Shown: positions 11,859 to 57,233 of the stretch, piece by piece
How the letters are laid out: each line of letters starts with the position of its first letter
Position numbering within the stretch: position 1 is the stretch's first letter
Origin: an uncultured Bacilli bacterium
GTDB lineage: Bacteria; Bacillota_I; Bacilli_A; RF39; UBA660
Length of the DNA: 64,000 nt
Reading direction: 5' to 3'
Assembly: GCA_934100165.1 (NCBI GenBank)
Contig: CAKOPN010000005.1
Span: 33,804-97,803 of the forward strand
Translations under genes and position numbers: made by a program
The notes under the pieces: model-generated
The model's database searches: none
Told to the model about the DNA's origin: nothing
Seen by the model: the letters and a program-made list of their open reading frames with translations, nothing else

Positions 11859-11889
11859 AAATTACCATGCACTACATGGTAATTTTTTT
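11859..11889 (+). terminator. Rho-independent terminator after the repeat-protein gene
   Basis: Hairpin AAATTACCATG-cacta-CATGGTAATTT followed by a T-run. Confidence 0.6.
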
Positions 11890-11985: not shown

Positions 11986-12873
11986 GTGAGTATGAATGGA
12001 AATTTAAATGTTTCAAAAGTGAAAAGATTCTTAAAAAATAAAAATACGGTAACAGCTTTATGTGCAATTTTAATAGTAGTAGTTTTAATCGTTGGTTACA
12101 CAATACGTGTTAATAATGCTACAAAACCAGTTAAAATACCAGTAGCAAAGGTTACAATCCAACCAAGAACAGAAATAACTGCGGATATGATAACTGAAAT
12201 AAATGTACCACAAGAAGCTTTAAAGGGTAATTATTATAGAAATGTAAGCTCTCTAGTAGGAAAATATTCAAATGTAAATACTGTAATTCCGGCTGGTAGT
12301 ATATTCTACAGTGAGGCAGTAATTAGTAAAAATGACCTACCAGATTCATCTTTATATGATGTTGCAGAAGGTGAGACTTTATATTATTTAACAGTTAATA
12401 TGCTAACAAGTTACACAAATTCAATTTTACCAGGAAATTATATTGATATATATCTTTCTACAAAAGAAAATAATAAAGCATTAGTTGGTAAAATATTAGA
12501 AAATGTTAAAATTTTAGCAGTAAAAACTTCTGATGGTAAAAATGTTTTTGAGAACTCTGATGAATCAAGAACACCATATGTAATAATTTTTGCTCTTCCA
12601 GAAGAACAACATTTATTACTTAGAAAAATAAATGCAATTAACAGCTATTCTGTATATGCAACTAATCCAGGATATTCAAAGATTGATATAATTCCAGTTC
12701 CTACCGCTGCAAGTTTTGACGGTTCGGAAAAAGATATTAAACCAAATGTAACTAGCCAATATTTAAAGGACTATATTTTAAATATGGCTGCTACAGTTCC
12801 AGAAGATGTAATTACTGAGAATAATAATAATCAAAATATAAATGAAAATGAAAACACTAACAAAACAGAATAA
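11986..12873 (+). CDS. CpaB/RcpC-like Flp-pilus assembly protein (N-terminal TM plus SAF-like domain)
   Basis: 295 aa. An N-terminal TM (VTALCAILIVVVLIVGY) is followed by a beta-rich region with LPGNYIDIY and VKILAVKT...YVIIFALPEEQHLLLRKINA motifs resembling CpaB. It ends in an Asn-rich tail. Confidence 0.6.
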   Translation: MSMNGNLNVSKVKRFLKNKNTVTALCAILIVVVLIVGYTIRVNNATKPVKIPVAKVTIQPRTEITADMITEINVPQEALKGNYYRNVSSLVGKYSNVNTVIPAGSIFYSEAVISKNDLPDSSLYDVAEGETLYYLTVNMLTSYTNSILPGNYIDIYLSTKENNKALVGKILENVKILAVKTSDGKNVFENSDESRTPYVIIFALPEEQHLLLRKINAINSYSVYATNPGYSKIDIIPVPTAASFDGSEKDIKPNVTSQYLKDYILNMAATVPEDVITENNNNQNINENENTNKTE

Positions 12874-12885
12874 TGAGGTGATTCT

Positions 12886-14373
12886 ATGAATGAGTCAATG
12901 AATTTTGGCAACATTGGTTTTAATAGTGTGGCTTCTAACAATACAGAAAATAATTTTGAAGTTAAGGCGCCAACTACTACAACAGGACAAAATATAACGG
13001 AAGAAAATAGTGGTATAGATTTTCCTAAAAGTAGTGTAGCTAAAATAGATGAGTCAAAAGAAGATAATTTTTCTAGTATTGAATTTGGACCACTACAAAA
13101 GTATCTAGATGATGATGATATCACAGATATTTCTTATAGTAATGGCGGACAACTATGGTTAAAGTCATTACAAAGAGGTGTATATAGAGCAGATCAACAA
13201 GATGTAGACAATGCTTTGGTAGAAAAAATAGCTTTCCAGTGTTCGAACGTAATGGGGAAAACATTTAACATGGCCCATCCATTCTTGGACTCTGAGAGTG
13301 CAGAGTTACGTATGAACTTTGTACACGATTCAATAGCACGTAACGGTATTGCTGCTGTTTTTCGTAAGACACCTGCTAAAATAAGACTTGAAAAAAGTAA
13401 ATTATTAAATGAAAAGTACGTTACTTTAAGTATTCATGATTTTCTAATAAACTGTGTAAAAGGGCACTGTAACATGATTGTCTGCGGTGAAACTGGTTCA
13501 GGTAAAACAGAACTTGTAAAATACTTAGCAAGTCATACAGCAGAAAATGAAAAGATAATAACTATTGAAGATACACTAGAACTTCACCTTGATAGAATAT
13601 ATCCAACTCGTGATATTGTAGCTATGAAAACAAATAACATTGCATCATATTCTGATGTTCTAGTTACATGTATGAGGCAAAACCCAAAATGGATACTACT
13701 ATCAGAAGTACGTAGTGCAGAAGCAGTTACAGCAGTTCGTAACTCTATATCATCAGGACACAACATCTTATCTACCATCCATGCTGATAAGGCAGAGAGT
13801 ATTCCACTTCGTATGTATAGCTTACTAGAGTCAAATATTGATGTAGAGCAGTTCTTAAAAACTATTTATCGTTATGTACAAGTAGGTATATTTGTAAGAG
13901 GTAGATATAGTCCAAAAGAAAAAAGATTTGTACGTGAAATTGCTGGAGTAACAGAGTTTTACGTAACGGATGATACTAATGAACCAAAAAGCAATAATAT
14001 ATATTTAAAAAATGTTGCAGGTGAAGAAACTTATAATGAGCCAACAGAATATTTAATAAATTACCTTGAAGGTCAAGGAATAGATATAAATAATTTATTT
14101 GGAGAAAATAAGTCATCACTTATTGCAACACTAAATGAAAAAGTAAATGAACCACAACCGGTAAATAATACTATACAAGCTCCTAATCAAAATATGCAGC
14201 AAAATATAAATTTAGCAGCACAAATAAATAATCAAAGTGCATTTCAAACAATACCAAATCAAAATAATGTAAACATGCAAGGCTATAATGCACCTGTTCA
14301 AGGTATGCAAAATCAAATGCCTTATCAAAGTCAAAATTTTAATCAACAAATAAATAGAATAGACACATTATAA
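12886..14373 (+). CDS. TadA/CpaF/VirB11-family secretion ATPase with N- and C-terminal low-complexity extensions
   Basis: 495 aa. Walker A CGETGSGKTE, the ITIEDTLEL aspartate box, ILLSEVRSAEA and a His box STIHA are diagnostic of the GspE/CpaF/VirB11 superfamily. An N-terminal ~100-aa N/T-rich region and a C-terminal ~90-aa Q/N-rich tail are atypical. Confidence 0.85.
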   Translation: MNESMNFGNIGFNSVASNNTENNFEVKAPTTTTGQNITEENSGIDFPKSSVAKIDESKEDNFSSIEFGPLQKYLDDDDITDISYSNGGQLWLKSLQRGVYRADQQDVDNALVEKIAFQCSNVMGKTFNMAHPFLDSESAELRMNFVHDSIARNGIAAVFRKTPAKIRLEKSKLLNEKYVTLSIHDFLINCVKGHCNMIVCGETGSGKTELVKYLASHTAENEKIITIEDTLELHLDRIYPTRDIVAMKTNNIASYSDVLVTCMRQNPKWILLSEVRSAEAVTAVRNSISSGHNILSTIHADKAESIPLRMYSLLESNIDVEQFLKTIYRYVQVGIFVRGRYSPKEKRFVREIAGVTEFYVTDDTNEPKSNNIYLKNVAGEETYNEPTEYLINYLEGQGIDINNLFGENKSSLIATLNEKVNEPQPVNNTIQAPNQNMQQNINLAAQINNQSAFQTIPNQNNVNMQGYNAPVQGMQNQMPYQSQNFNQQINRIDTL

Positions 14374-14393
14374 AATCGAAAGAAGGTGTATTT

Positions 14394-15290
14394 ATGATAG
14401 AACTAATTATCGTTATAGCAATTGCAATTTTTGCAATACTATATATGTTTAAAACTGGCGATTCTATGTACAAGTTTATCGTCGACACATCTTCTGTTGT
14501 ATACGATAAACTAGCTCCTTATTCTTTTAAAATGATAAGAGAAAAAGTAAAGGAAATGGGCCTTGAATATTCACCAAAACAGTATATGATTCAAGTTCTT
14601 ACGTTTGGTGGAGCAGCACTTGGTATATCATATTTATACTTTTACAATATTGCAGTTTCTATAGTATACATGATTCTAACGATATGCGTTATTCCATATC
14701 TAGCATACTTAAGATGTAAAAGAATATATAGTGAATTTATATTTGAGCAAATTCAGGTATATACAACAAACACTATAATGGAATTTCAAACAACTCAGAA
14801 TTTTGTAAAAGCACTAGAAGGTGTATATAACTCTGGTGTTCTTCAGTCTCCTGTATCAGATGATGTTAAAACAATGATAGATATGGCTTATAAAAATGGT
14901 GATATAACTGAATCAATAAATTTTATGAATGAACGATATGACTTTCATATGACAAGAAATATGCATCAGTTATTCTTACAAATAACAAGAGAGGGTGCAA
15001 AAGATTCAAACGAAGTATTAGAAAATATGCTTTTAGATATAGATATGCTAGTAGAAGGTGTATATAGAGATAGGATCGATAGACAAAATTTCCATAAGCA
15101 GTTCGTTCAGTATGGAATATTACTATATCTAATGGTTATGCTTGTTCAGTATTTGCTTGGAATAGACACATACTTACAGTTACTTGAGAATACATTCGTA
15201 AAAATTGCGCTTCACGTAATTGTTCTATTTAATAGTTACTTCTTACTTAGTGGTGAAAAATATTATAATGAGAATGTGGGGGCTGAGTAA
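14394..15290 (+). CDS. Polytopic membrane protein, TadB/GspF-like platform protein candidate
   Basis: 298 aa with an N-terminal TM, a central cytoplasmic helical region and further TM pairs. It sits immediately after the CpaF-like ATPase, as in tad loci. Assigned by topology and synteny only. Confidence 0.45.
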   Translation: MIELIIVIAIAIFAILYMFKTGDSMYKFIVDTSSVVYDKLAPYSFKMIREKVKEMGLEYSPKQYMIQVLTFGGAALGISYLYFYNIAVSIVYMILTICVIPYLAYLRCKRIYSEFIFEQIQVYTTNTIMEFQTTQNFVKALEGVYNSGVLQSPVSDDVKTMIDMAYKNGDITESINFMNERYDFHMTRNMHQLFLQITREGAKDSNEVLENMLLDIDMLVEGVYRDRIDRQNFHKQFVQYGILLYLMVMLVQYLLGIDTYLQLLENTFVKIALHVIVLFNSYFLLSGEKYYNENVGAE

Positions 15291-15292
15291 TT

Positions 15293-16081
15293 ATGTATAT
15301 AGAGATATTTCTTATAGCAATACTTGTACTAGTACCTTTCTTATATTCAGGAAAAATTACTACAAAGAGTTTCTTGAATGAAGAAAATGGATACTTATTA
15401 GGATTGAAAGAAAAGGATTATGACTTCTATGTCATGGCCAAATATGGTGAAACAGCTATTCCAAATAAGCTTTTCGCAGCAAGAGTAAAAAATGCTTTTT
15501 ATGGTACTTTAATAATATTTGTATTTATGATAGGTAACATAAACTTTTTAAATGTGTTAATGGTGTTAATACTAGGCGTACTTTTATTCAAAATGCCATA
15601 TATTTCTTTAAAAAGTTATTACAAAAAATATATGCATCAAATTGACTTGCTTCTTCCATATTACTTGAAAAACCTTGAAATATTATGTCAAAACTATACA
15701 GTCCCAGTGGCAATTGCGAGATCAATTGAAAGTGCTCCTGATGTATTTAAACCAGGTTTAAGAGAAATGATAGCAAAGATTGATGCTGGAGATTCTTCAA
15801 TACAACCATATATGGATTTTGCAACAACTTATCCAGTAAGAGACTCAATGAGAATGATGAGACTTTTGTATAGATTAGGTCTTGGTGCACAGGAAAATAA
15901 ATACAAACAATTACTTATATTTTCAAAGTCAGTTTCTTCACTTCAAAATAAGGCAAGAGAAGTTAAATATAAAAATAGACTTGATACTATGGAAAAGAAA
16001 ACTATGGTAATGCTTGTTGTAACCGGTGGGGGAACAATGGTTATATTACTTTTGTCAATGCTTATGTTGTTTGGAATGTAA
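15293..16081 (+). CDS. Polytopic membrane protein, TadC/GspF-like platform protein candidate
   Basis: 262 aa. N-terminal TM, a central TM pair and a C-terminal TM. It lies 2 nt after the previous gene. Assigned by synteny and topology only. Confidence 0.4.
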   Translation: MYIEIFLIAILVLVPFLYSGKITTKSFLNEENGYLLGLKEKDYDFYVMAKYGETAIPNKLFAARVKNAFYGTLIIFVFMIGNINFLNVLMVLILGVLLFKMPYISLKSYYKKYMHQIDLLLPYYLKNLEILCQNYTVPVAIARSIESAPDVFKPGLREMIAKIDAGDSSIQPYMDFATTYPVRDSMRMMRLLYRLGLGAQENKYKQLLIFSKSVSSLQNKAREVKYKNRLDTMEKKTMVMLVVTGGGTMVILLLSMLMLFGM

Positions 16082-16188
16082 AGTTAAATCGTAAATATTG
16101 ATATTAAGTAAAAATATGTTTATAATATATTATATACAATAGAAGGGAGAGATATTGGAGAATGAAAGAGGCTACAGGAGAATTAAAT

Positions 16189-16329
16189 ATGACACTTGTT
16201 ACTATTATTGCAATAGCAGCAGTATTAACTTTCGTTACTATGTTCTTACCAAAAATTTTAAATAGTGTTGGTAATACATGGGAAAATGGAACAGGACAAG
16301 AAATAAATGTTCCAAATCCAGGAAATTAA
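16189..16329 (+). CDS. Small pilin-like protein (46 aa; alternative start at 16162 gives 55 aa), absent from the supplied ORF track
   Basis: Translation MTLVTIIAIAAVLTFVTMFLPKILNSVGNTWENGTGQEINVPNPGN is a short hydrophobic helix plus a polar tail. An AGGAG RBS lies 8 nt upstream of the ATG at 16189. It sits where flp sits in tad loci. No canonical G/XXXXEY processing motif is present. Confidence 0.4.
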   Translation: MTLVTIIAIAAVLTFVTMFLPKILNSVGNTWENGTGQEINVPNPGN

Positions 16330-16352
16330 GATAGTAAAAGAGGTGATAGTTA

Positions 16353-16796
16353 ATGCGTGAGTCAATTGGTGGTACTATGCTATTTTGGATAGTATTGTTC
16401 TTTATGAGTATATTTATAACTTTTTTGGCCGCTGTTATCCAGTATGCAAAAGTTTATAAAATAAAAAACTCAATGATTAACTATCTAGAGCAAGGAGAAG
16501 GCATAGCTAGCAAGGAAGAATTTGAAAATGTACTAGCTGACTTAGGTTATCCGCAAAAAGGTAAATATGTAATATGTAGATATGGTGCAGAGAATAGAGG
16601 TGGCTATTATTATATTAAATTATATGCAACTTTCTCAGTTCTTAATGCATCTGTAGATGTTATGGTAAAAGGGGAAACAAGGCTTATTGAAAGTGGAGTC
16701 TATGTAAAAGGAAATGAATGGTTCCAGTATTTAGGTACAACCAAAAGTTGTGATGGAAGGAATGTTAGTGAAGCAGAACTTACAAGGGTGGATTAG
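16353..16796 (+). CDS. TadE-like pseudopilin candidate (N-terminal hydrophobic segment plus globular domain)
   Basis: 147 aa. MRESIGGTMLFWIVLFFMSIFITFLAAVIQYAKV is an N-terminal TM or class-III-like signal, followed by a soluble domain. AGAGGTGA RBS. It sits directly after the pilin-like ORF. Confidence 0.4.
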   Translation: MRESIGGTMLFWIVLFFMSIFITFLAAVIQYAKVYKIKNSMINYLEQGEGIASKEEFENVLADLGYPQKGKYVICRYGAENRGGYYYIKLYATFSVLNASVDVMVKGETRLIESGVYVKGNEWFQYLGTTKSCDGRNVSEAELTRVD

Positions 16797-16799
16797 CGT

Positions 16800-17747
16800 A
16801 TGAATGTATTAGTTGTTAATAAACAAGAAGATGTAATATCAGCATTAAATATAGAAGTAATTAAAACATTACGTGGTGTTTTTGATGCAGATGAGATTAT
16901 AAGCACATTTACAAATTTCTATTTTGCAAGAATGATAATTGATGTAACAGCACTCAAAGATTATGAGGATGTTGCAATATATCAGAAATTGTCAATAGGT
17001 CTTCCAATAGATAAAGTAATACTTTTAATTCCATCATCTAGTGCTGCCGCAAACAATTACTTTTTATCAAAGTTAATTTCAATGGGATATTATAATTTTA
17101 CAACAAATGGTGATGGTGTTAAGTATTTACTTACAAATCCAAATTCCTACAAGGATGTTGCCTATTTACATCAGGTTGAAGCTCCTACCAATAATGTTGT
17201 TCCAACAGAAAATGGTGGTGCTGTATTAAGTGGAATAAGAATCCTAGGAGTTAAGAATGTAACTGATGAAGCAGGTTCATCATCGCTTATATATATGATG
17301 AAAAAGGAGCTTGAAGAGAAGTATAATCTTTCAGTTTTAGCTGTCGAAGTTGATAAAAGAGATTTCACTTTCTTTAGAAGCAAGGATATGATATCTACAG
17401 ATAAAACTTCTATTGCGACTGAGCTTCTTAAAGCTAAGAATTACAACTATATATTAGTTGATTTAAATGATTATGATGAAAATATATGTGATGAAACTTT
17501 ATACTTAATTGAACCATCAATAATTAAACTTAATAAACTAATGTTGAGGGACAAGGGTGTTTTTTCAAGATTAAGGGATAAAAAGGTTATAATAAACAGA
17601 TCAGTTTTGAATGAAGCTGATATTAAGGAATTTGCTTCAGAAGCGGGTATAAAAATATTTGATGTTATACCTTGCTTAAATGATAGAGAATTATCAAAAG
17701 AAATTTCTAGTTTACTTGTTAAACTTGGAATGGTTAAGAGTGTGTAA
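16800..17747 (+). CDS. Hypothetical cytoplasmic protein associated with the Tad-like locus (possibly a degenerate CpaE/TadZ-like protein)
   Basis: 315 aa with no TM. It sits where tadZ/cpaE would be, but has no canonical deviant Walker A. Function unassigned. Confidence 0.5.
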   Translation: MNVLVVNKQEDVISALNIEVIKTLRGVFDADEIISTFTNFYFARMIIDVTALKDYEDVAIYQKLSIGLPIDKVILLIPSSSAAANNYFLSKLISMGYYNFTTNGDGVKYLLTNPNSYKDVAYLHQVEAPTNNVVPTENGGAVLSGIRILGVKNVTDEAGSSSLIYMMKKELEEKYNLSVLAVEVDKRDFTFFRSKDMISTDKTSIATELLKAKNYNYILVDLNDYDENICDETLYLIEPSIIKLNKLMLRDKGVFSRLRDKKVIINRSVLNEADIKEFASEAGIKIFDVIPCLNDRELSKEISSLLVKLGMVKSV

Positions 17748-17759
17748 CATAAATAATCG

Positions 17760-17788
17760 TTGACAAATAAAGGTTGTTATAGTATTAT
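17760..17788 (+). promoter_or_regulatory. Consensus sigma-A-type promoter TTGACA-17 nt-TATTAT upstream of the VirB2-like gene
   Basis: Perfect -35 hexamer (17760-17765), a 17-nt spacer and a TATTAT -10 (17783-17788). A GGAGGAG RBS at 17804-17810 precedes the ATG at 17817. Confidence 0.5.
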
Positions 17789-17816
17789 TTAGTTATGAAA
17801 TTTGGAGGAGTTTTGT

Positions 17817-18146
17817 ATGGAAATATTTCAAACTTTAGCTGATGCTTGCGGAGGATTACGTCCGATCGTTGCAGTATTAAAAGGTGTATTTGATATTATT
17901 AAAATAGGTGTTCCAATTTTACTTATAATAATGGGAGCAATAGACTTAGGAAAAGCTGTTATGGCTAGTGATGATAAAGAAATCAAAGCAGCAACTAGTA
18001 AGTTAATTAAACGTGCTATTGCAGCAGCTGCAGTGTTCTTTGCTGTTACTATTGTAGATGTAGTAATGGGACTAGTAGCAAGAGGAGAAGAAACTGATGG
18101 TGAAACAAACTCATCAAGTTGGTCTGCTTGCTGGAAGAGTATGTAA
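17817..18146 (+). CDS. Small two-TM protein, VirB2/TrbC-like pilin candidate
   Basis: 109 aa from the ATG at 17817. The track start at 17802 is a TTG inside the RBS. There are two hydrophobic helices (IGVPILLIIMGAIDLG and AIAAAAVFFAVTIVDVVMGLV) separated by a charged loop, the topology of VirB2/TrbC-family conjugative pilins. Confidence 0.4.
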   Translation: MEIFQTLADACGGLRPIVAVLKGVFDIIKIGVPILLIIMGAIDLGKAVMASDDKEIKAATSKLIKRAIAAAAVFFAVTIVDVVMGLVARGEETDGETNSSSWSACWKSM

Positions 18147-18257
18147 TTTTAATTATATCTGTAAAAGGAAGGATTATTTCTTCTTTTTTTTTAATTTTTA
18201 TTTATGTTTTTTGTAAAATATGTTATATTAGATGTGTGTATTTTATGCGAGGTAAGT

Positions 18258-19466
18258 ATGGATAAAAAAGTGTATAAATATATTGGAATATTAGTCGGCT
18301 TAGTAGTTTTATTAGTAGTAGTTGTATGGATATCTAATCTTGTTAGCGGTGGAACAACCTATTCCTATGAAAGTATAGAGAAAAAAATGGTAAGTGCTAC
18401 TAAAAGTTATATGAAAGATCATTCAGCAATGCTTCCTACAGAAGTTGGAGAAAGTGTAACAATATCACCAACTGTGTTAGTTAACAATAATTACTTTAAA
18501 GGTTTTGACGCATATGTAAAAGATAGCGACGTTGTATGTAACGGAAGTGTTGATGTATATATGGCTGGTGACGGTTATTATGATTACACACCAACTCTTA
18601 ATTGCGGAAATAAACACAATACAACGAAGTTATATGAAAAAGTTTTAGAAGATAATAACTATGGTGTAGTAATGGGATATGGTCTTTATCAAAGAGTGAA
18701 TGGAACGTTTGTTACAAACGAAGATAATCTAGTAATTGATAACAATTATGAAAGCCTTGAATATGTATTTCGTGGAAAAGATGTTAATAACTATGTAAAA
18801 ATCGATGATAATTACTGGAGAATAGTTGCAATAAGTGATGCCGGTGATATGACACTTTTATTCTCTGGAACACTCCAAAGAGGTGTATCTTGGGATGATA
18901 AATATAATGAAAGTGTTGGTAAAAATCAAGGTATAAATGATTATGAAAAAAATGGAATAAAAAGTACAATAAGAGAAGAAGTAGAAAAATTTTATAATGG
19001 AGAAGCAACATTGCTAAATAAAGAAGAATATAGTCCTAAAACTAAATATTTAATTTCACCTGCTTCATTGTGTATTGGCAAAAGAAAAGCAACGGATAAA
19101 GATTCAAGTGGAAAAATAGAATGTAGTCAAAGACTTGATGGACAGTATGTAGGATTGCTTCCAGCATACTACTATATGAATGCAAGTGTTGATGAAAACT
19201 GTGATACAATTACTTCAAGAAGTTGTGGAAATGATAACTATTTATCAAGCTTTAATGATTACTGGTGGCTTTTAACTGCTAATCAAGAAGCAAGTAATGA
19301 AGCATACCAAGTATTTAAAACCTATGCTCGTTCAGAATTGTGTATAGCAAAAACAAATGTTAAACCAACTGTTTTACTAGGAAATAGAGTATTATGGGAA
19401 AGTGGAGATGGAAGCAGTAACAATCCATATACCATCAAGTTTTATGCTGATGACAGTTTAAATTAA
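18258..19466 (+). CDS. Membrane-anchored Cys-rich extracellular protein of unknown function
   Basis: About 402 aa from the ATG at 18258 (GAGG RBS). An N-terminal TM anchor (YIGILVGLVVLLVVVVWI) is followed by an extracellular domain with ~10 Cys. Located inside the T4SS-like array. Confidence 0.55.
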   Translation: MDKKVYKYIGILVGLVVLLVVVVWISNLVSGGTTYSYESIEKKMVSATKSYMKDHSAMLPTEVGESVTISPTVLVNNNYFKGFDAYVKDSDVVCNGSVDVYMAGDGYYDYTPTLNCGNKHNTTKLYEKVLEDNNYGVVMGYGLYQRVNGTFVTNEDNLVIDNNYESLEYVFRGKDVNNYVKIDDNYWRIVAISDAGDMTLLFSGTLQRGVSWDDKYNESVGKNQGINDYEKNGIKSTIREEVEKFYNGEATLLNKEEYSPKTKYLISPASLCIGKRKATDKDSSGKIECSQRLDGQYVGLLPAYYYMNASVDENCDTITSRSCGNDNYLSSFNDYWWLLTANQEASNEAYQVFKTYARSELCIAKTNVKPTVLLGNRVLWESGDGSSNNPYTIKFYADDSLN

Positions 19467-19500
19467 AGATGAGTAGTTTTAATAAAAAAGGAGTGATATT

Positions 19501-21381
19501 ATGGGATTACAAGCAGAAAGTTGGATCAATAATATACTAAGGACAATTTTAGCTGGCCTTGATTATGTTATTTATGGACTAATTAAAAACGTACTTTTTC
19601 TAACTTTTGACTTAGCTAATTTAACAACAAGCTCAAAGATATTAAATGGTATATATAGTCGTATATATGTACTTTTAGGAGTATTTATGGCTTTCAAACT
19701 TTCTTTTTCATTCTTTCAATACATTGTTGATCCAGAATCAATGACAGGAAAAAGTGAAAAAGGTGTTGGAAAACTTATTTCACGTACAATAGTTATGCTT
19801 GTAGCACTGGTTGGTCTTCCAACAATATTATTTGGTGGTGGTGATGGTGAAGGCTTAATTCAGAGAGCTCAAAATGCATTTTTACCAATGCTACCTAGAG
19901 TTATCTTTGGAATAAGCGAAGATAGCGGTGTATCTGCAAGTAATGGTAATAACACTGAAGACATTACTAATGCTGCAAATACGATGGCAGCTTATACGTT
20001 AGGTGCTTTTTTCGCACCGTCGCCGGATTTGGATAGTGTATGTGAAGGTCAATATGCCAATACACCATACATAACATCACTTGACCAATTTATTTCAAAT
20101 GTTAATGTGAGTTGTAGAAACACTACTGGTAAGGGTGATAGTGCTAAATACTACAAATATAGTTATATATGCTTAATATCTACGGTAGTAGGACTATTGT
20201 TAGTAATTATTTTGTTAGGAATTGCCTTAGACGTTGGAAAGAGAGTTTTCAAAATGATAATTTTACAAGCAATAGCACCAATTCCAATAATGTCGTTAAT
20301 AGATCCAAAGTCAAGCAAAGATGGTGCTTTTTCACACTGGTTAAAGTCTTTAATTTCAACTTTCTTAGAAATATTTATTAAACTGGGTTTGGTATACCTT
20401 GTGCTTATGTTTATACAGTACATTATAAGTGGAGGATTGTTTAGTAATTTTCCAAGTTTTAGTGGACCAAACGGAGTAATTAGAAGTTCATTCTTATTTG
20501 TAACCTTGATAATAGCATTGCTCTTATTTGCCAAAGAAGCTCCAAAATTTATCAAGGATGCTATGGGAATTAAAGATTCAGGTGCTGGCTTTGGACAAGG
20601 AATGAGCGCTGCTATGGGAGCCATCGGTGGATTTATTGGTGGACGTGGTCTTGCTGGTATGGCAACAGGAGCAGTCGCAGGAGCTACAGCAGATCCTAAA
20701 GTTGGTGGTTACGCAGCAGGTCGTGACATAGCAGGTCAAATGAGAACAGGTGATAAAAACTGGAAAGGTGGTCTTACTAATGGCTTCATGAGAGGTGCAA
20801 GAAATCACCAAGGTACAAGAGAAGCAAGAAAACTTGGTGTAACTTCAGCAAGTTTGAGTGCTGCTAAAGATGCAATGAAGAAGGATGAAGAACGTGTTGA
20901 ATCACTACAACAAGCATATGGTGAAGCAGTACAAAGCGGAGATGCAACTGCTATTGCCGAAGCAAGAACAAATTTAAATGCTGCTATCAAACAGTCAAAA
21001 GCCTCAAAGAAAAGATACGAAGGTATGGACAAAATTGCCGATACATTTGGTATAAAAACACCAAAACATGTTGAAATGAAACAAAATGGAAACCCAGTGT
21101 ACAGAGGAAGAAGATCAGCAGCTAACCTTGCTGGCAAAGCTGGTAGTTGGATAGAGAATAGCAAAGTTGGTGCACCTATTAGAACAATTGATTCAGCAGT
21201 ACAACAGCATAGAATTAATCAAGTAACAAGAGGTGCAGCATTTGGAGATGATTCAGCACTTGCAGAAAGAAGAGATGAACTAGATAGTAGAGGTACATTA
21301 CAATCAAAAACTGGTCGTCACTTTGCACCAAGAGGCTCAAATAACAATAATTCTGGCGGTTCTAGTGGAAGTAGTTCATAA
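19501..21381 (+). CDS. VirB6/TrbL-like polytopic membrane protein with a long Gly-rich hydrophilic C-terminal tail
   Basis: 626 aa. About 6 TM helices in the first ~360 aa, then a Gly/Ala-rich segment (GAGFGQGMSAAMGAIGGFIGGRGLAGMATGAVAGA) and a ~250-aa charged tail ending in SGGSSGSSS. This architecture and the synteny (before VirB3-like and VirB4) are typical of VirB6-like proteins of Gram-positive T4SS. Confidence 0.5.
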   Translation: MGLQAESWINNILRTILAGLDYVIYGLIKNVLFLTFDLANLTTSSKILNGIYSRIYVLLGVFMAFKLSFSFFQYIVDPESMTGKSEKGVGKLISRTIVMLVALVGLPTILFGGGDGEGLIQRAQNAFLPMLPRVIFGISEDSGVSASNGNNTEDITNAANTMAAYTLGAFFAPSPDLDSVCEGQYANTPYITSLDQFISNVNVSCRNTTGKGDSAKYYKYSYICLISTVVGLLLVIILLGIALDVGKRVFKMIILQAIAPIPIMSLIDPKSSKDGAFSHWLKSLISTFLEIFIKLGLVYLVLMFIQYIISGGLFSNFPSFSGPNGVIRSSFLFVTLIIALLLFAKEAPKFIKDAMGIKDSGAGFGQGMSAAMGAIGGFIGGRGLAGMATGAVAGATADPKVGGYAAGRDIAGQMRTGDKNWKGGLTNGFMRGARNHQGTREARKLGVTSASLSAAKDAMKKDEERVESLQQAYGEAVQSGDATAIAEARTNLNAAIKQSKASKKRYEGMDKIADTFGIKTPKHVEMKQNGNPVYRGRRSAANLAGKAGSWIENSKVGAPIRTIDSAVQQHRINQVTRGAAFGDDSALAERRDELDSRGTLQSKTGRHFAPRGSNNNNSGGSSGSSS

Positions 21382-21399
21382 AAGGGAGTGTGATATATA

Positions 21400-21726
21400 G
21401 TGAATAATTATTTAATACCCGCAAATGCCAATAGAGGAAGACTAATTTTAGGGTACTTCAGGCCAATTGATTTAATTATCTTTCTAGTAGGAATTACAGC
21501 AACACTAATTTTATTCTTAGTATTTCAGGATTATACCGACAGTACTTTGGTAGTTATAACTCTTATGCTTCCAGTACTTACAGCATTACTCTTAGTATTA
21601 CCAATACCATATCAACATAACGTATTGGTTCTTCTTACAGCTATATATAGTTTCTTTTGTGTAAATAGACAAAAATATGTTTGGAGAGGTTGGTGTATGA
21701 AATATGACGACGAGACAAAGAAGTAG
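21400..21726 (+). CDS. VirB3/PrgI-like small two-TM membrane protein
   Basis: 108 aa with two TM helices, immediately upstream of the VirB4 gene as in Gram-positive conjugation loci. GTG start with an AAGGGAG RBS. Confidence 0.4.
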   Translation: MNNYLIPANANRGRLILGYFRPIDLIIFLVGITATLILFLVFQDYTDSTLVVITLMLPVLTALLLVLPIPYQHNVLVLLTAIYSFFCVNRQKYVWRGWCMKYDDETKK

Positions 21727-22255
21727 ATTTACAGAAGACTGGGTACCAGTTCAAAATATTACAAATGGAATGATAATCCTTAACAATCAAGAAAAAGTAA
21801 CTGGAGTTAAAGTTGCTCCTAAAAATATATTTATATTGGATTATGAATCACAGCAATCAGTTTTGGTAAACTTGCAAAATATGTATAACCAAATAGATTT
21901 TGAGTTTTGGTTAGTAGTAGCGGATAGACCAGTTGACATATCTGTGTATATGTCACAATTACAACTCCTTTATAATCAAGAGTCTTCACCAGCAATTAGA
22001 AAACTTATTGCTGAAGACATAGATAAAGGAAGTTCATTTATGAATAACAACGTTGTTGATACAGAATATTTCCTTCTATTTAAAGAAAGAGATATGGATA
22101 GAATTCAAAGAAGAATAAGAATGCTTATAAATGCATTAGCAACAGCAGGACTTTCAGCAAAACAAACATCAAATGAGGATTTAAGAGTTATACTCGATAA
22201 CTTCTTAAATGGTGGAAAAACTACAGATTTTGGAACGGTGGTGGTTAATCAATGA
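21704..22255 (+). CDS. Hypothetical protein; possible separately encoded N-terminal portion or partner of VirB4
   Basis: 183 aa with no TM. It overlaps the VirB3-like gene by 23 nt and the VirB4 ORF by ATGA (22252-22255). Together with the 597-aa ORF it sums to ~780 aa, the usual VirB4 size. Confidence 0.4.
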   Translation: MTTRQRSRFTEDWVPVQNITNGMIILNNQEKVTGVKVAPKNIFILDYESQQSVLVNLQNMYNQIDFEFWLVVADRPVDISVYMSQLQLLYNQESSPAIRKLIAEDIDKGSSFMNNNVVDTEYFLLFKERDMDRIQRRIRMLINALATAGLSAKQTSNEDLRVILDNFLNGGKTTDFGTVVVNQ

Positions 22256-24045
22256 GTATGTTAAAGTTTAAATCACAAATTGCACCAAAAGGATTACAAT
22301 TTTATCCTAGTGAATTTTTTATAAGTGATAAATATGCTACTATATTAACAGTTGTATCATTTCCAAAATTTATTTCGCCAGGATACCTTTCAAGCATAAC
22401 AAATATGTCTGGTATTAAGATTGTTATCAAACATATTCCACTACCTTTTTCAGTAGTATCAAAAATGTTAAATAAGCAAATAGCAGACTTAAAAATTAAA
22501 TATCAAGAAGAACATGATAGAACAATGCAAGAAAAATATCGTATGGACTATGAATCACTTGAGTCTTTCGTAACAATGTTAGCAGGAAGTCAAGCTAGAA
22601 TATTCGATTTCCAAATGCATATTTTAATTACTGCAGATTCAAAAGAAAGTTTGGAACTTAAGAAAACAAATATTAAAAACTACCTAGATGCCATGGGAAT
22701 GAAAGGAGTGGCATTAAGATTTGAGCAAGAAAAAGCTTTAAAATCAATGATTCCAGTATTTCCAAAGCAAGACATAGAAGAGAGAATAGGAACACCAATC
22801 CCTTCAGTAACAATTGCTGCAATGTACCCATTTATCTTTGACAGCGTAAAAGATCCTGGATATGCAACGCTTTTAGGAGTTGATTTCTCAGGTGGTGTTA
22901 TCTTGTTCAACCAATTCTTGTATAAAATAAGAAAAGAAAATAATAGAAACAATGCAAACCTTATCTTACTAGGTACATCAGGTAGTGGTAAATCAACAGC
23001 AGCTAAACTTTTACTTAGAGGCCATATAAGAAATGGTTGCCAAATAGTAGCAATAGACCCAGAAAACGAGCTTGAAGAGATGACAAAAACATTTGGAGGA
23101 GACACAATCGACCTTGGTAAAGGTGGAGAATTCGGTATGATTAACCCACTTCAAATAGTAATTGATGCTGATGAAGATGAAATGAGACAGGGACTAGGAT
23201 ATACAGTCTTAACTCGTACACTACAGTTCTTAAAAGCCTTTATGAAATATTATGATCCATCAATTGAAGAAGATGTACTTACATTGTTTAGTGAAGTTGT
23301 TCAAGATACATACAAGCGTTTTGGAATTGACTTTGATAAAGACTTCTATAGCTATGGACCACAAGATTATCCAACATTCTCAGATGTTTATGAAACTATA
23401 AAAGCAATACTTTTATCAATGACGGATAAAACACATGAACGTGATATAATGGAAAGACTTGAGTTAAAAATAAGACCACTTACCAAAGATTTAAAATACT
23501 ATTTTGATGGTCATACAACTATAACTCATGATAGCGATTTTATTACATTTAACATTAAAGAGCTTATGAATGCTGATGAAAATATTAAAAATGCACTTTT
23601 CTTCAACATTTTGAAATATGCTTGGGGATTATGTTTGGACAAAGATGTTGATACAATTCTGATGGTAGATGAAGCACACGTTCTATTAAGTGATAGCAAT
23701 ACTCTAGGTGCAGACTTCTTAGCTCAAGTTCAAAGACGTGCTAGAAAATATAACACAGGAACGATTATAATTACACAACAACCAAGTGACTTTGCAGCGC
23801 CAAGTGTTCTAGTACAAGGTAAAGCAATATTCGATAATGCTTCTTACTACTTAGTAATGGGATTAAAGAAACAAGCAACAGAGGACTTAAGTCTGTTGAT
23901 AGATTTAAATGATAATGAAAAAGAAAGTATTAAACAGTATTCACAAGGTGAAGCACTGTTCGTCTGTGGAAATAGACGTATGAGAATAAATGTTATTGTA
24001 ACACCAGAAGAGCTATCATCATTCGGTAGTGGCGGAGGACTATAA
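22252..24045 (+). CDS. VirB4/TraE/TrsE-family T4SS ATPase
   Basis: 597 aa. Walker A LILLGTSGSGKST, Walker B ILMVDEAHVL, motif RRARKYNTGTIIITQQPSDF, and the N-terminal YPSEFFISDKYATILTVVSFPKF region typical of Gram-positive VirB4 proteins. Confidence 0.85.
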   Translation: MSMLKFKSQIAPKGLQFYPSEFFISDKYATILTVVSFPKFISPGYLSSITNMSGIKIVIKHIPLPFSVVSKMLNKQIADLKIKYQEEHDRTMQEKYRMDYESLESFVTMLAGSQARIFDFQMHILITADSKESLELKKTNIKNYLDAMGMKGVALRFEQEKALKSMIPVFPKQDIEERIGTPIPSVTIAAMYPFIFDSVKDPGYATLLGVDFSGGVILFNQFLYKIRKENNRNNANLILLGTSGSGKSTAAKLLLRGHIRNGCQIVAIDPENELEEMTKTFGGDTIDLGKGGEFGMINPLQIVIDADEDEMRQGLGYTVLTRTLQFLKAFMKYYDPSIEEDVLTLFSEVVQDTYKRFGIDFDKDFYSYGPQDYPTFSDVYETIKAILLSMTDKTHERDIMERLELKIRPLTKDLKYYFDGHTTITHDSDFITFNIKELMNADENIKNALFFNILKYAWGLCLDKDVDTILMVDEAHVLLSDSNTLGADFLAQVQRRARKYNTGTIIITQQPSDFAAPSVLVQGKAIFDNASYYLVMGLKKQATEDLSLLIDLNDNEKESIKQYSQGEALFVCGNRRMRINVIVTPEELSSFGSGGGL

Positions 24046-24136
24046 TATAAAAAAACAAAGCATCTAGAAATAGATGTTTTTCTTGTAATAATACATCTTT
24101 TAGTATATAATATAATGGAAATGTGGAGGTATATTT

Positions 24137-25399
24137 ATGGCAAATAAAAAAAATGAAAACGAAGTAGTAGTAAAAATCGAAGGAGAAAGTTGGAAAAAAG
24201 CCTTAGATAAAGCATTTGCAGAGAAAGTTAAAAAAGTAAATGTTGCAGGTTTTAGAAAAGGTAAAGTTCCACGTGATATATATGAAAAGAAGTTTGGAAA
24301 AGAAAGTTTATATTTTCCAGCTAGTGATTATGTAATTTCAGAAGCATATGAGAAAGCAATTAAGGACTCAAAATTAGTTCCAGTTGTACAACCTAAGATT
24401 GAGATTAAGGATGTAAACGATGAAGCTATAGAATTTGTTTTCAAAATAATTACTAAACCTGAAGTAAAAATTAAAAAGTATAAAGGACTATCAGTAAAAC
24501 CTGAAAAAGTAAAAGTAACTAAAGAAGAAGTTGAAACTGAAGTTGAACGTATGCTTGAAAAATACAGTGAAGTTCGTACTAAAGAAAAAGGAGCTTTAAA
24601 AGGGGGAGAAATAGCTATTATTGATTTCGAAGGATTTAAAGATGGAACACCATTTGAAGGCGGAAAAGCTGAAAACTATGAACTTGAAATCGGAAGTCAT
24701 ACATTTATTCCAGGATTTGAAGAACAATTAGTAGGAATGAAAACAGAAGAAGAAAAAGAAATTAAAGTTACATTCCCTAAAGATTATCCAGTAGAGGATT
24801 TAAAAGATAAAGAAGTAACTTTTAAAGTAAAACTTCATGAAATAAAAGAAAAAGTTAAAAGAGAATTCGATAAAGAATTATTTGAAGATTTAGCAATTGA
24901 AGGTGTTGATTCAAAAGAGACACTATATAAACACATTGAAGATGAAATCAAGGCACACAAAGAAATGCATGCTGAAAATGATTATGTTGATAAATTATTA
25001 GAGACAGTAGCAAAGAATGTAGAAGTTGATATTCCAGAAGAAATGGTTGAAGAAGAAGTAGACAGAATGCTTGAAAGATATAATGAACAACTAAGAAGCC
25101 AAGGTGCATCAATCGAAATGTATTATGCATTTACTAAAACAACTGAAAAAGATTTAAGAGCAAGTATGGAAAAAGATGCTTACAACCATGTATTATATCG
25201 TTTAATGCTTGAAGAAATTGCTAATATTGAAAAGATAGAAGTTACTGAAGAAGATTCAAACAAAGAAGCAGAAGAACTTGCAAAGAAATATAACATGAAG
25301 AAAGAAGAGTTCTTAAAAATGTTTGGTGGTTTAGAAATGATTCAGTACGATCTTGAAATAAGAAAAGTAATTGAATTATTAAAAGAATTAAATAAATAG
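24137..25399 (+). CDS. tig: Trigger factor (ribosome-associated PPIase chaperone)
   Basis: 420 aa. The N-terminal ribosome-binding signature VNVAGFRKGKVPR plus FKBP-type domain and C-terminal arm. Confidence 0.95.
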   Translation: MANKKNENEVVVKIEGESWKKALDKAFAEKVKKVNVAGFRKGKVPRDIYEKKFGKESLYFPASDYVISEAYEKAIKDSKLVPVVQPKIEIKDVNDEAIEFVFKIITKPEVKIKKYKGLSVKPEKVKVTKEEVETEVERMLEKYSEVRTKEKGALKGGEIAIIDFEGFKDGTPFEGGKAENYELEIGSHTFIPGFEEQLVGMKTEEEKEIKVTFPKDYPVEDLKDKEVTFKVKLHEIKEKVKREFDKELFEDLAIEGVDSKETLYKHIEDEIKAHKEMHAENDYVDKLLETVAKNVEVDIPEEMVEEEVDRMLERYNEQLRSQGASIEMYYAFTKTTEKDLRASMEKDAYNHVLYRLMLEEIANIEKIEVTEEDSNKEAEELAKKYNMKKEEFLKMFGGLEMIQYDLEIRKVIELLKELNK

Positions 25400-30238: not shown

Positions 30239-30315
30239 GGGCGATTAGCTCAGTTGGTTAGAGCACCTGCCTTACAAGCAGGGGGTCATAGGTTCGAGTC
30301 CTATATCGCCCACCA
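30239..30315 (+). tRNA. tRNA-Val (anticodon TAC)
   Basis: Cloverleaf GGGCGAT/ATCGCCC acceptor stem, D-arm GCTCAGTTGGTTAGAGC, anticodon loop CTTACAA, T-arm GGTTCGAGTCC, encoded CCA. Confidence 0.9.
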
Positions 30316-30325
30316 TATTTGTTGT

Positions 30326-30401
30326 GCCGAAATAGCTCAATTGGTAGAGCAACTGATTTGTAATCAGTAGGTTCCGGGTTCAAGTCCTGGTTTCGGCACC
30401 A
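30326..30401 (+). tRNA. tRNA-Thr (anticodon TGT)
   Basis: Acceptor GCCGAAA/TTTCGGC, anticodon stem ACTGA/TCAGT with loop TTTGTAA, T-arm GGTTCAAGTCC, encoded CCA. Confidence 0.9.
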
Positions 30402-30407
30402 TTTTTT

Positions 30408-30491
30408 GGAGAGGTAGCGAAGTGGCTAAACGCGGCAGACTGTAAATCTGTTCCTTCGGGTTCGATGGTTCGAATCCATCTCTCTCCACCA
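30408..30491 (+). tRNA. tRNA-Tyr (anticodon GTA), with long variable arm
   Basis: GGAGAGG acceptor, anticodon loop CTGTAAA, variable arm TCCTTCGGG, T-arm GGTTCGAATCC, encoded CCA. Confidence 0.85.
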
Positions 30492-30496
30492 CTTAT

Positions 30497-30571
30497 TGCC
30501 TCGTAGCCAAGTGGTAAGGCACGAGACTTTGACTCTCGCATGCGCTAGTTCGAATCTAGCCGAGGCAGCCA
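30497..30571 (+). tRNA. tRNA-Gln (anticodon TTG)
   Basis: TGCCTCG/CGAGGCA acceptor (U1-A72 as in Bacillus tRNA-Gln), anticodon loop CTTTGAC, T-arm AGTTCGAATCT, encoded CCA. Confidence 0.85.
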
Positions 30572-30578
30572 ATTTTGT

Positions 30579-30654
30579 GTTCCGTTAGCTCAGTTGGTAG
30601 AGCATTTGACTTTTAATCAAAGGGTCTGGAGTTCGAATCTCCAACGGGACACCA
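30579..30654 (+). tRNA. tRNA-Lys (anticodon TTT)
   Basis: GTTCCGT/ACGGGAC acceptor, anticodon loop CTTTTAA, T-arm GAGTTCGAATCTC, encoded CCA. Confidence 0.9.
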
Positions 30655-30884: not shown

Positions 30885-31223
30885 GTGTTACAAATTGAAA
30901 CAATATATAAAAAAGGAATTCTTTTTGTAAGATGTTATGGAGTAATAAATAAAGAAACAAAAAAAGAACTTGAAAAAACACTTGAAAGCGCCATAAATGA
31001 AGTTGGTATAAAATATTTGCTTTTAAACGTTGAAAATATTTACTATATAAATACAGAAATAGAATCCATAATAAAAAAATGGAGTACTATTTTAAGTAAA
31101 AAGGATGGAAAGTTCTTTATGTGTGGAAAAGAACAATTAAAAGAAACATATGATGTTGATAAAACAGAAAAAGTACTACAGATGACAGATGAATTTAGTG
31201 TATTTAAAATGATAAATATATAG
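30885..31223 (+). CDS. spoIIAA: STAS-domain anti-sigma-factor antagonist, SpoIIAA-like (divergent)
   Basis: 112 aa. It aligns along its length with SpoIIAA (IETIYKKGILFVRCYGVI..., YLLLNVENIYYIN..., FFMCGKEQLKE) and sits immediately upstream of sigF. The canonical phospho-acceptor DSSG loop reads NTEIES here. GTG start with a GGAGG RBS. Confidence 0.65.
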   Translation: MLQIETIYKKGILFVRCYGVINKETKKELEKTLESAINEVGIKYLLLNVENIYYINTEIESIIKKWSTILSKKDGKFFMCGKEQLKETYDVDKTEKVLQMTDEFSVFKMINI

Positions 31224-31224
31224 G

Positions 31225-31917: not shown

Positions 31918-31942
31918 CTGCTATAAAAAGCAGTTTTTTTGT
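31916..31942 (+). terminator. Rho-independent terminator between sigF and spoVAC
   Basis: Hairpin AACTGCT-ataaaa-AGCAGTT followed by TTTTTTT. Confidence 0.55.
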
Positions 31943-31985
31943 ATAAAAATACCATTTTTGTTAATCATATTTATAGGTGATTATA

Positions 31986-32429: not shown

Positions 32430-32430
32430 G

Positions 32431-33426: not shown

Positions 33427-33773
33427 CATATATATATTCGTTTTTATTTGTAGGGTTTGTAAGTATGATAGGCCAAATAATATTAGATAATACTCGTCTT
33501 ACAGCAGGTCACATAACAAGTTTGTTTGTCTGTATTGGTGCGATGCTTGATACATTCAGCATATATGATAAGATAATTAAATGTGTAGGATCAGGTGCTT
33601 TAGTACCGATAACTTCCTTCGGTCATTCTTTAATTCATGGAGCACTTGCAAAAGCTGCAGATTTTGGTGTAATAGGGTTAGTAATGGGAATGTTTGATTT
33701 AACGGCCTCAGGTATAACATCGGCAATAATATTTACTTTTGTCTTCTCTTTAATATTTAATCCAAAAGACTAA
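33423..33773 (+). CDS. spoVAE: Stage V sporulation protein AE
   Basis: 116 aa. Membrane protein paralogous to SpoVAC (VPITSFGHSLIHGALAKAADFGVIGLVMG). ATGA overlap with spoVAD. Confidence 0.85.
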   Translation: MTYIYSFLFVGFVSMIGQIILDNTRLTAGHITSLFVCIGAMLDTFSIYDKIIKCVGSGALVPITSFGHSLIHGALAKAADFGVIGLVMGMFDLTASGITSAIIFTFVFSLIFNPKD

Positions 33774-57212: not shown

Positions 57213-57233
57213 GCTTTGTTAGGTGGTGAAATA

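Follow-up and report, generated by a model that had tools for sequence, protein, structure and literature searches.

The transfer region of the plasmids pAW63, pXO2 and pBT9727 was described in 2005 as encoding homologues of VirB11, VirB4 and VirD4 (PMC1196294); in the parts of that literature consulted, the module of pAW63 and pXO2 is treated as a VirB11 homologue accompanied by hypothetical proteins rather than as a Tad-like machine. The published gene table of pAW63 (PMC1196294) gives an order similar to that of the locus considered here, an array at positions 11986–24045 of a 64-kb stretch of DNA from an uncultured Bacilli bacterium (contig CAKOPN010000005.1; the whole stretch is hereafter the window), in which a module resembling the Tad (type IVc) pilus is joined to a type IV secretion system (T4SS) of the conjugation type. 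We consider it probable, at roughly 65%, that this region forms the middle part of a larger chromosomal array, conserved throughout its lineage, that encodes a domesticated, vertically inherited and pilus-assisted T4SS; all other explanations weighed below rank lower. Judged by sequence, the array would be a form, fixed in the chromosome and lacking a detectable relaxase, of an apparatus already known from plasmids, conserved across a large lineage of uncultured gut Bacilli. A pilus and DNA-transfer machinery of the plasmid mating type seems to have been turned into a permanent cell organ.

Searches of plasmids with tblastn revealed that the composite of Tad-like and T4SS genes exists on plasmids of the Bacillus cereus group. 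On pBMB68 (NZ_CP010581.1, B. thuringiensis, typed as conjugative), there are a MobP3 relaxase, a VirD4 of the CD1115 family, TrbL, PrgI, a 227-aa open reading frame (ORF), a DUF87 VirB4 and an NlpC/P60 protein and, a few genes further on, a large surface protein, a DUF5411 protein, a SAF/CpaB protein, an AAA protein, an ATPase annotated for type II secretion, type IV pili (T4P) or T4SS, two polytopic proteins and a DUF4320 protein. The plasmid pCh25_53 (NZ_CP024102.1, B. cytotoxicus, typed as mobilizable) carries the same Tad-like set beside T4SS genes of the TcpD/TcpE type. Seven proteins of the window (the CpaB-like protein, the ATPase, two polytopic proteins, both parts of a split VirB4 and the type IV coupling protein, T4CP) match plasmid counterparts at 22–35% identity (tblastn). 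The CpaB-like protein is 29% identical to its counterparts on pCh25_53 and pBMB68, on the latter a SAF-domain protein, the C-terminal VirB4 ORF is 29% identical to the DUF87 protein of pBMB68, and the second polytopic protein shares 29–35% identity, over short stretches, with the second transmembrane protein of pCh25_53 and pBMB68. Homologues of the CpaB-like protein, often annotated cpaB, occur on 368 plasmids, mostly from Bacillus, and 142 of these are typed as conjugative. The original prediction, made from the sequence of the window, held that Gram-positive T4SSs never occur with such partners; since plasmids of the B. cereus group carry homologous SAF/CpaB, ATPase, two transmembrane proteins and DUF5411 beside split VirB4, TrbL, PrgI and VirD4, this is wrong.

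The Bacillus plasmids share with the window a CpaB-like protein, the ATPase and two polytopic proteins beside TrbL/VirB6, a PrgI/VirB3-like protein (in the window a candidate), a split VirB4 (~225 aa and ~630 aa on the plasmids), a hydrolase and a CD1115-type VirD4, and they share with its relatives a large surface protein and a DUF5411 protein, the latter absent from the window. For pAW63, pXO2 and pBT9727 the likeness is known from the published gene table, and for pBMB68 and pCh25_53 from protein matches. Several differences are apparent. Besides replication genes, the plasmids have a relaxase, either MobP3 or a replication-relaxation protein, whereas the system in the window is chromosomal, has no detectable relaxase, appears to be vertically inherited and is divided between two loci. 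On the plasmids, CpaB and the ATPase are separated by a ParA-like protein that lacks the N-domain of the window's TadZ-like protein, and a comparison of the TadZ-like family with the AAA protein of pBMB68 (hhalign) gave a weak match in the P-loop region (E 0.0033, probability 10%). The plasmid hydrolase is of the NlpC/P60 type, whereas that of the window is of the SpoIID type. No VirB2-like gene of the PF18895 family was recognised on the plasmids, and hhalign of the VirB2-like family against a 126-aa protein of pBMB68 was negative.

Chromosomal T4SSs derived from MPF_FATA, most of them in clusters without a relaxase, are known from Patescibacteria (Saccharibacteria), and Saccharibacteria cells also depend on T4P (PMC12102498, PMC12857230). 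These systems resemble the one described here in having monoderm-type VirB3, VirB4, VirB6, VirD4 and hydrolase on the chromosome of a reduced genome, divergent VirB2-like pilins (PF18895) encoded in arrays, and lineage-wide conservation. They belong to another phylum, and T4P genes inside the T4SS array are not reported in the parts of these sources consulted. Their essentiality was established by transposon sequencing, whereas the present system is known from its genes, and the VirB4 found here is closest, by model scores rather than by phylogeny, to the model of a mycoplasma integrative and conjugative element (ICE) and not to the Patescibacteria clade. In the IncI1 plasmid R64, with its thin pilus, and in the PAPI-1 island, a type IV filament is encoded together with a T4SS (VirB4, T4CP) and is needed for transfer, or boosts it, via cell contact (PMC12857230). 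This joint encoding is shared with the window; those filaments are T4b pili of diderm hosts on mobile elements with relaxases, whereas here a Tad-like filament system occurs in a monoderm and appears not to be mobile.

For VirB4 the best-scoring NCBIfam models are those of mycoplasma ICEs (the Mbov_0395/0397 and MMCAP2_0565/0566 families; E 1.5e-105), which VirB6 (1.4e-5) and, weakly, the pilin-like protein (0.049) also match, all below the model cutoffs. Like the system of the window, the ICE module is a minimal monoderm T4SS of reduced genomes. Mycoplasma ICEs are mobile by means of a DDE transposase, and unlike the window they have no wall hydrolase. As far as the consulted part of PMC12857230 goes, a mycoplasma ICE mediates chromosomal transfer, and Tad-like genes are not mentioned there for these elements. 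Tad pili share with the window a CpaB-like protein and several small pilin-like proteins and, as candidates, a TadZ/CpaE-like protein, an ATPase of the TadA/CpaF family and TadB/TadC-like platforms. They differ in that the locus described here has no Flp motif, no TadV peptidase and no match to the T2SSF profile hidden Markov model (HMM), and is joined to a T4SS. A divergent Tad-like cluster, whose small pilin-like proteins are recognisable mainly by structure, has been described in the gut clade TANB77 (PMC11680825). The literature searched, whose coverage is incomplete and so gives no proof of absence, contained no account of the composite in RF39, RFN20 or gut Bacilli.

Gene content of the array and of a displaced block

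The window is a gene-dense chromosome segment of ~30% GC whose genes are mostly co-directional. The array comprises 13 ORFs, where fourteen genes had been counted, all on the plus strand, with gaps of 2–111 nt and two overlaps; the tight co-directional arrangement of two modules on a chromosomal backbone had been correctly recognised. The ORFs agree with the gene calls on identical metagenome contigs, except that three genes begin further in there, at 11992 (cpaB), 17817 (the VirB2-like gene) and 18258 (the ectoprotein gene). The boundaries proposed for the array were too narrow: a hydrolase, an anchored protein and VirD4 at 57216–63772 belong to it, as do four upstream genes found in relatives.

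11992–12873, plus strand: CpaB/RcpC-like protein, 293 aa (PF16976); a GTG start is possible at 11986
12886–14373, plus strand: secretion or pilus ATPase of the CpaF/VirB11/FlaI clade (PF00437, 4.7e-26)
14394–15290, plus strand: TadB/TadC-like polytopic platform protein, 298 aa
15293–16081, plus strand: second platform-like polytopic protein, 262 aa (position and topology)
16162–16329, plus strand: mini-pilin-like protein, 55 aa (conserved leader and hydrophobic helix)
16353–16796, plus strand: pilin-like protein p147, minor pilin candidate (leader)
16800–17747, plus strand: TadZ/CpaE-like protein, 315 aa (AlphaFold2 model and Foldseek)
17817–18146, plus strand: VirB2-like T4SS pilin, 109 aa (PF18895, 1e-4; ribosome-binding site and ATG present)
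18258–19466, plus strand: membrane-anchored cysteine-rich ectoprotein, 402 aa (family matches DUF6273)
19501–21381, plus strand: VirB6/TrbL-like polytopic protein (PF19597 TrbL_4, 28.3 against a cutoff of 27)
21400–21726, plus strand: VirB3/PrgI-like small membrane protein, 108 aa (position, size and motif)
21704–22255, plus strand: VirB4 N-terminal domain as a separate ORF (NF045975 positions 100–276, 1.1e-15)
22252–24045, plus strand: C-terminal part of the VirB4 ATPase, 597 aa (NF045975, 1.5e-105)
57216–60266, plus strand: SpoIID-domain membrane-anchored protein, 1016 aa, candidate T4SS peptidoglycan hydrolase (PF08486, 4.4e-12)
60354–61106, plus strand: anchored protein, 250 aa, which always precedes the T4CP
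61172–63772, plus strand: VirD4-type coupling protein (T4CP), 866 aa (PF02534, 6e-64)
Upstream of cpaB in relatives: a ~530-aa polytopic protein, a ~220-aa secreted protein, a highly variable cysteine-rich secreted protein of 800–1400 aa and a DUF5411 protein

Of the components by which a monoderm T4SS is defined, VirB4, VirB6/TrbL, a VirD4 coupling protein and a cell-wall hydrolase are encoded, and the VirB2-like, VirB6/TrbL-like and two-ORF VirB4 assignments of the original prediction stand. The C-terminal VirB4 ORF has intact Walker A and B motifs and matches the CD1110 family (3.5e-51) and TIGR00929 (6.2e-23) in addition to its best match, the mycoplasma-ICE VirB4 model NF045975, where its score is below the family cutoff; the N-terminal ORF also matches PF26593 weakly. 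The two ORFs overlap by ATGA at 22252–22255. Relatives of the C-terminal part are 77–100% identical, and the split is kept in all relatives seen and on pBMB68. A pseudogenised VirB4 was considered and rejected, the split being conserved everywhere, plasmids included. VirB6 matches NF045890 (pLS20_p028) at 1.8e-7 and NF045848 (MMCAP2_0566) at 1.4e-5; its Gly/Ala/Lys-rich C-terminal extension of ~250 aa coincides with the only local rise in GC (0.35–0.36). The VirB3 protein is a candidate by position directly upstream of VirB4, by size (108 aa against 111 aa for PrgI), by two hydrophobic segments and by an invariant YLIPAN motif that aligns with NPYLIPKN in a PrgI-family protein of pBMB68 (hhalign E 2.4e-4, probability 43%); no HMM matched this protein. 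In the VirB2-like family, 20 of the 41 members match PF18895 (best 4.8e-7), and relatives carry one to four divergent paralogues, always at the junction of the two modules and directly after the TadZ-like gene. The ectoprotein of the window has no Pfam match itself; 22 of the 28 members of its family match DUF6273 (PF19789, best 5.4e-9), and the cysteines are invariant.

The T4CP also matches PF12696 (3.5e-25), PF10412 (1.9e-23) and, with 302.6 bits against a cutoff of 250, the CD1115 model NF045973. In 46 of the longer loci anchored on this gene, the order is VirB6, VirB3, N- and C-terminal VirB4, SpoIID hydrolase, anchored protein, T4CP and DUF6273-family ectoprotein, with the T4CP ~3 kb downstream of VirB4; in most relatives the SpoIID-domain protein has ~780 aa and lies directly 3' of VirB4, the ectoprotein gene follows the T4CP, and housekeeping genes (rhodanese, DedA, RmuC, TrpRS, tig) come after the block. 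Only in the window's own subclade (L092, L094 and L095) is the stretch from hydrolase to T4CP separated from VirB4; in the window it lies 33 kb downstream of the array, between topA and holA. The SpoIID-domain protein presumably acts as a hydrolase in secretion. The anchored 250-aa protein, whose position is occupied in relatives by families g13 and g7, has no family match and no PDB sequence match, and a VirB8-like role is possible for it; both it and the DUF6273 ectoprotein, for which the window protein likewise gave no PDB sequence match, are candidates for a VirB8-like subunit. At 54108–64000 the gene order is topA, a 314-aa protein, the SpoIID protein, the anchored protein, the T4CP, a secreted SNase-type nuclease, a PedC-like protein and holA, and the SNase-type nuclease adjoins the T4CP only in the window's subclade.

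The first module fared unevenly. Its CpaB/RcpC protein, one of the components that define a Tad system, passes the PF16976 cutoff (30.6 bits against 28.8), with a weak SAF match in addition; TIGR03177 was matched at 4.8e-13, yet under the family cutoff. This assignment and that of the ATPase to the broad CpaF/VirB11/FlaI clade were confirmed, while the TadE-like assignment of p147 found no support among HMMs (TadE and DUF4320 gave trace matches only), so that this protein is pilin-like by its leader. One of the two proteins predicted to be GspF-like has the GspF/PilC fold; neither matches the T2SSF HMM. The platform-protein family is narrow (225 representatives among 1.84 billion), with trace T2SSF matches in distant members, and five of 36 orthologues of the second platform protein touch PF00482 (T2SSF) at E values of 0.048 or higher. 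Comparing the two platform families with each other (hhalign) gave no signal of paralogy past the N-terminal helix, and profile searches against PDB sequences returned nothing usable for the platform, TadZ-like, VirB3-like and ectoprotein families.

The mini-pilin begins with MKEAxG-E(L/A)(N/S)(M/L)T followed by a hydrophobic helix, and MKEAxG-E...T is invariant in 55 orthologues. In the p147 family, whose gene is often duplicated in relatives, a leader M-[RK]-E-[SA]-x-G and a transmembrane helix are present in 76 of 102 members. A similar short leader occurs in p147, in the mini-pilin and in the DUF5411 protein upstream of cpaB in relatives, and this common leader would be a pilin-type signature distinct from the Flp motif. 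The 315-aa protein, which had been left as an unassigned cytoplasmic protein, has a predicted TadZ/CpaE-like architecture: in an AlphaFold2 model (pLDDT 79.7), built on shallower alignments, an alpha/beta N-domain precedes a ParA/MinD-fold C-domain with a degenerate P-loop. Foldseek against the PDB retrieved ParA, MinD, FlhG, BcsQ and HypB (E 5e-5 to 1e-3), with TadZ itself absent from the top structural matches; the protein has no Walker A motif and no sequence match in Pfam or PDB.

The ATPase has an intact Walker A motif (GETGSGKT) and is about equidistant from CpaF (9e-18), VirB11 (1.6e-16) and FlaI (7.8e-16) in the PDB, scores that do not separate these clades. VirB11 and TrbB models match it as strongly as CpaF models do, every NCBIfam equivalog model remaining under its cutoff. 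It ends in a Q/N-rich low-complexity tail; the length of its orthologues ranges from 326 to 866 aa because these tails vary. The equal scores, together with the annotation of the pAW63 homologue as VirB11 (PMC1196294), would suit a single hybrid apparatus in which the ATPase is the VirB11 equivalent, the polytopic proteins belong to the same complex and the filament is built of VirB2-like subunits. The lack of a prepilin peptidase in the window and in the arrays points the same way, as do the VirB2-like genes, which lie next to the TadZ-like gene and remain beside the Tad-like genes in loci without VirB6, VirB3 and VirB4. We regard such a fused machine, which the original prediction had also raised, as having a low probability, given that CpaB-like, TadZ-like and GspF/PilC-fold proteins together with three families bearing a pilin leader characterise machines that build type IV filaments. 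We know of no T4SS that uses parts of these kinds. Because the ATPase has platform, pilin-like, CpaB-like and TadZ-like partners of its own, we favour a filament machine that is distinct from the T4SS and works together with it.

Conservation, linkage and mobility

A relative of the ATPase is encoded in at least 561 stretches of a collection with one genome per species. The records are gut and rumen metagenome-assembled genomes titled Bacilli, Tenericutes or Mollicutes, and one closed chromosome of 1.26 Mb; some array-carrying assemblies (L014, L033, L039, L056 and others) are titled Muribaculaceae or Ignavibacteriales, which is probably due to mis-binning or mis-labelling. A synteny check had been proposed, and it found the array syntenic in most of 160 loci examined, with the order from cpaB to VirB4 kept in most of the 80 species-level loci retained. 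VirB6, VirB3 and VirB4 follow the Tad-like genes in 39 of the 62 loci with sufficient downstream DNA. Given that the linkage is conserved, it is no accident of this genome. Most relatives have the four additional conserved genes upstream of cpaB listed above; the corresponding families (f13, f7, f15/f26 and f6/DUF5411), like the downstream families g9, g11 and g12, were searched for in the window and none was found. The cysteine-rich secreted proteins of 800–1400 aa that precede DUF5411 and cpaB are highly divergent (L007–L086, and also L173 at 22717–25272), and the C-terminal region of the one in L018 weakly matches the 851-aa protein that pBMB68 encodes at the corresponding position.

The identities of the Tad module and the T4SS module co-vary across loci (Spearman 0.82 for the 298-aa platform protein against the C-terminal VirB4 ORF, n=27), and the pairwise identity of the latter co-varies with that of the adjacent TrpRS (Spearman 0.80, 55 pairs), VirB4 being the higher of the two at 84% against 78%; both coefficients were computed from pairs that are not independent and do not amount to formal tests of reconciliation. 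They are indications of vertical descent under strong constraint.

Another explanation would be two independent neighbours, a Tad-like adhesion pilus directed at host or mucus and a T4SS remnant, both inherited from one ancestral plasmid segment. Some species indeed keep the Tad-like genes, with or without the VirB2-like gene, followed by housekeeping genes (L023–L030, L036, L037, L042, L044 and L060), and stand-alone Tad-like clusters occur in the reduced-genome gut clade TANB77 (PMC11680825). Sites resembling promoters lie before both the mini-pilin gene (16098–16126) and the VirB2-like gene (17760–17788, predicted as a consensus promoter); each matches at 11 of 12 positions, and in this AT-rich region they are no more frequent than in shuffled sequence. 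The two modules have, however, remained contiguous in most species and on independent plasmids, their divergence is correlated, the VirB2-like genes always occupy the junction after the TadZ-like gene, and the T4SS genes are more constrained than expected of a remnant. We therefore think it unlikely that the modules are unrelated in function.

The nearest characterised homologues are all found on mobile elements (the mycoplasma ICE models for VirB4, VirB6 and pilin, CD1110, CD1115, pLS20_p028 and the Bacillus plasmids), and the chromosomal position varies between clades. This would be expected if the genes belonged to an ICE or an integrated plasmid, active or recently decayed, and served the transfer of that element. 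The flanks differ among clades, and all are housekeeping genes (scpAB, an ABC transporter, PPDK, LeuRS, tig, TrpRS and RmuC), which fits the domesticated reading. As had been predicted, the Pfam listings of the window contain no integrase or recombinase family and no relaxase family, and no direct repeats flank the array beyond AT-rich chance matches; no replication signature was detected in the window either. Searches (tblastn) with the MobP3 relaxase of pBMB68 and the replication-relaxation protein of pCh25_53 gave no match in either the window or the fetched loci. The wide occurrence of ATPase relatives in a one-genome-per-species collection also argues against an ICE, as does a VirB4 that is more conserved than TrpRS and diverges with it. 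In the window's species the array lies in two distant pieces, all of them intact. On the missing integrase, relaxase and repeats in the window, the co-divergence of VirB4 and TrpRS and the intact split array, the identity as an ICE was rejected, and we give it little credence.

Several points weigh against a domesticated, pilus-assisted T4SS, in addition to the non-independence noted for the correlations. About one-third of the species-level loci have Tad-like genes without adjacent VirB6, VirB3 and VirB4, some of them stopping after the VirB2-like or platform genes and continuing with housekeeping genes, and loci of 21 kb cannot separate relocation from loss; in the window itself, 33 kb separate the T4CP block from the array, so the genes need not be physically linked. 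Another part of the genome may encode a relaxase, or the relaxase may belong to a family not yet recognised, and the screen of related loci consisted of tblastn with two plasmid relaxases only and did not extend to integrases. The ATPase cannot be placed by its scores in the CpaF clade over the VirB11 clade, and HMM support for the second platform protein and p147 is at trace level. The mini-pilin lacks the Flp processing motif G/xxxxEY (no EY in the 55 orthologues), and no prepilin peptidase was detected in the window (no Peptidase_A24 in the Pfam listings and no GxGD-type motif) or in the arrays, so filament formation is hypothetical; the peptidase could be encoded outside the 64 kb.

Proposed origin and function

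Starting from the gene identities, synteny, conservation and plasmid homology established directly, we infer that the two modules cooperate. The array would descend from the transfer region of a conjugative element of Firmicutes, of the kind now found on pBMB68, pCh25_53 and, by gene order, pAW63/pXO2. Such a region would natively hold two cooperating envelope machines: a divergent Tad-type type IV filament system with the 55-aa pilin and pilin-like proteins bearing the leader M-K/R-E-A/S-x-G, and a monoderm T4SS made up of VirB2-like pilins, VirB6, the VirB3/PrgI-like protein, split VirB4, the SpoIID-type hydrolase, the anchored protein and VirD4. In the gut Bacilli lineage, whose closed or near-closed genomes have 1.26–1.32 Mb, the array would then have been passed on vertically under strong purifying selection, and in the window's species it would later have been split, the hydrolase, anchored protein and T4CP moving 33 kb downstream. 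The Tad-like filament, in relatives together with the variable cysteine-rich surface proteins, may make or tighten cell-cell contact, after which the hydrolase would cut a hole in the wall, the T4CP would feed the channel of VirB4, VirB6 and VirB3, and a macromolecule would move between cells. This mechanism is drawn by analogy with the type IV pili that aid transfer in IncI/R64 and PAPI-1 and with the Patescibacteria, whose chromosomes retain a T4SS that has VirB2-like pilins and lacks a relaxase. DNA is the likeliest substrate, given that the system has kept a VirD4-type receptor and that its VirB4 is nearest to the model of the mycoplasma ICE, which mediates chromosomal transfer; protein or another cargo is possible.

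If this reading of a domesticated, pilus-assisted T4SS holds, the 'VirB11 region' of pXO2 and pAW63 would be a Tad-like filament module, and pilus-assisted conjugation, known from the Gram-negative IncI plasmids and PAPI-1, would extend to Firmicutes. The gut Bacilli would then be the second independent monoderm lineage with reduced genomes, after Patescibacteria, to have fixed a relaxase-less T4SS with VirB2-like pilins, and to have done so under very strong constraint, which would suggest a general link between genome reduction, reliance on neighbouring cells and exapted T4SSs. A bolder and doubtful extension is that the array is a lineage-defining and possibly essential contact organ, a Tad-like pilus coupled to a relaxase-independent T4SS with VirB2-like conduits, that exchanges chromosomal DNA or extracts or delivers macromolecules. 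This would make it the Firmicute counterpart of the dependence of epibiotic Saccharibacteria on T4P and T4SS, with a plasmid mating apparatus exapted whole. The host bacteria are uncultured and common in human and ruminant guts, and a conserved surface organ offers a handle for their enrichment, for imaging and for the study of their lifestyle.

Neighbouring genes

Sporulation genes are present at 30885–33773 (a STAS/SpoIIAA-like protein, a sigma factor, SpoVAC, SpoVAD and SpoVAEB), although the closed or near-closed genomes of the lineage have only 1.26–1.32 Mb. That the array forms a sporulation-linked channel between mother cell and forespore, analogous to SpoIIIA–SpoIIQ, in this spore-forming lineage is highly improbable; identity with the spoIIIA operon was considered and rejected. 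Five clustered tRNA genes (Val, Thr, Tyr, Gln and Lys) at 30239–30654, 6 kb downstream of VirB4, gave no sign of use as an integration site.

Upstream of the array, at the place where relatives have its four conserved accessory genes, a gene at 9487–11847 encodes a 786-aa coiled-coil protein with imperfect tandem repeats of 60 nt (20 aa) and a GAEEQAK.L motif, for which no family match was obtained. A terminator-like hairpin at 11859–11885, bidirectional, lies at the end of this gene and separates it from the array. Further upstream, the gene at 908–4618 encodes a 1236-aa fusion of an MMPL/RND-type transporter with a long coiled-coil tail that is SMC-like.

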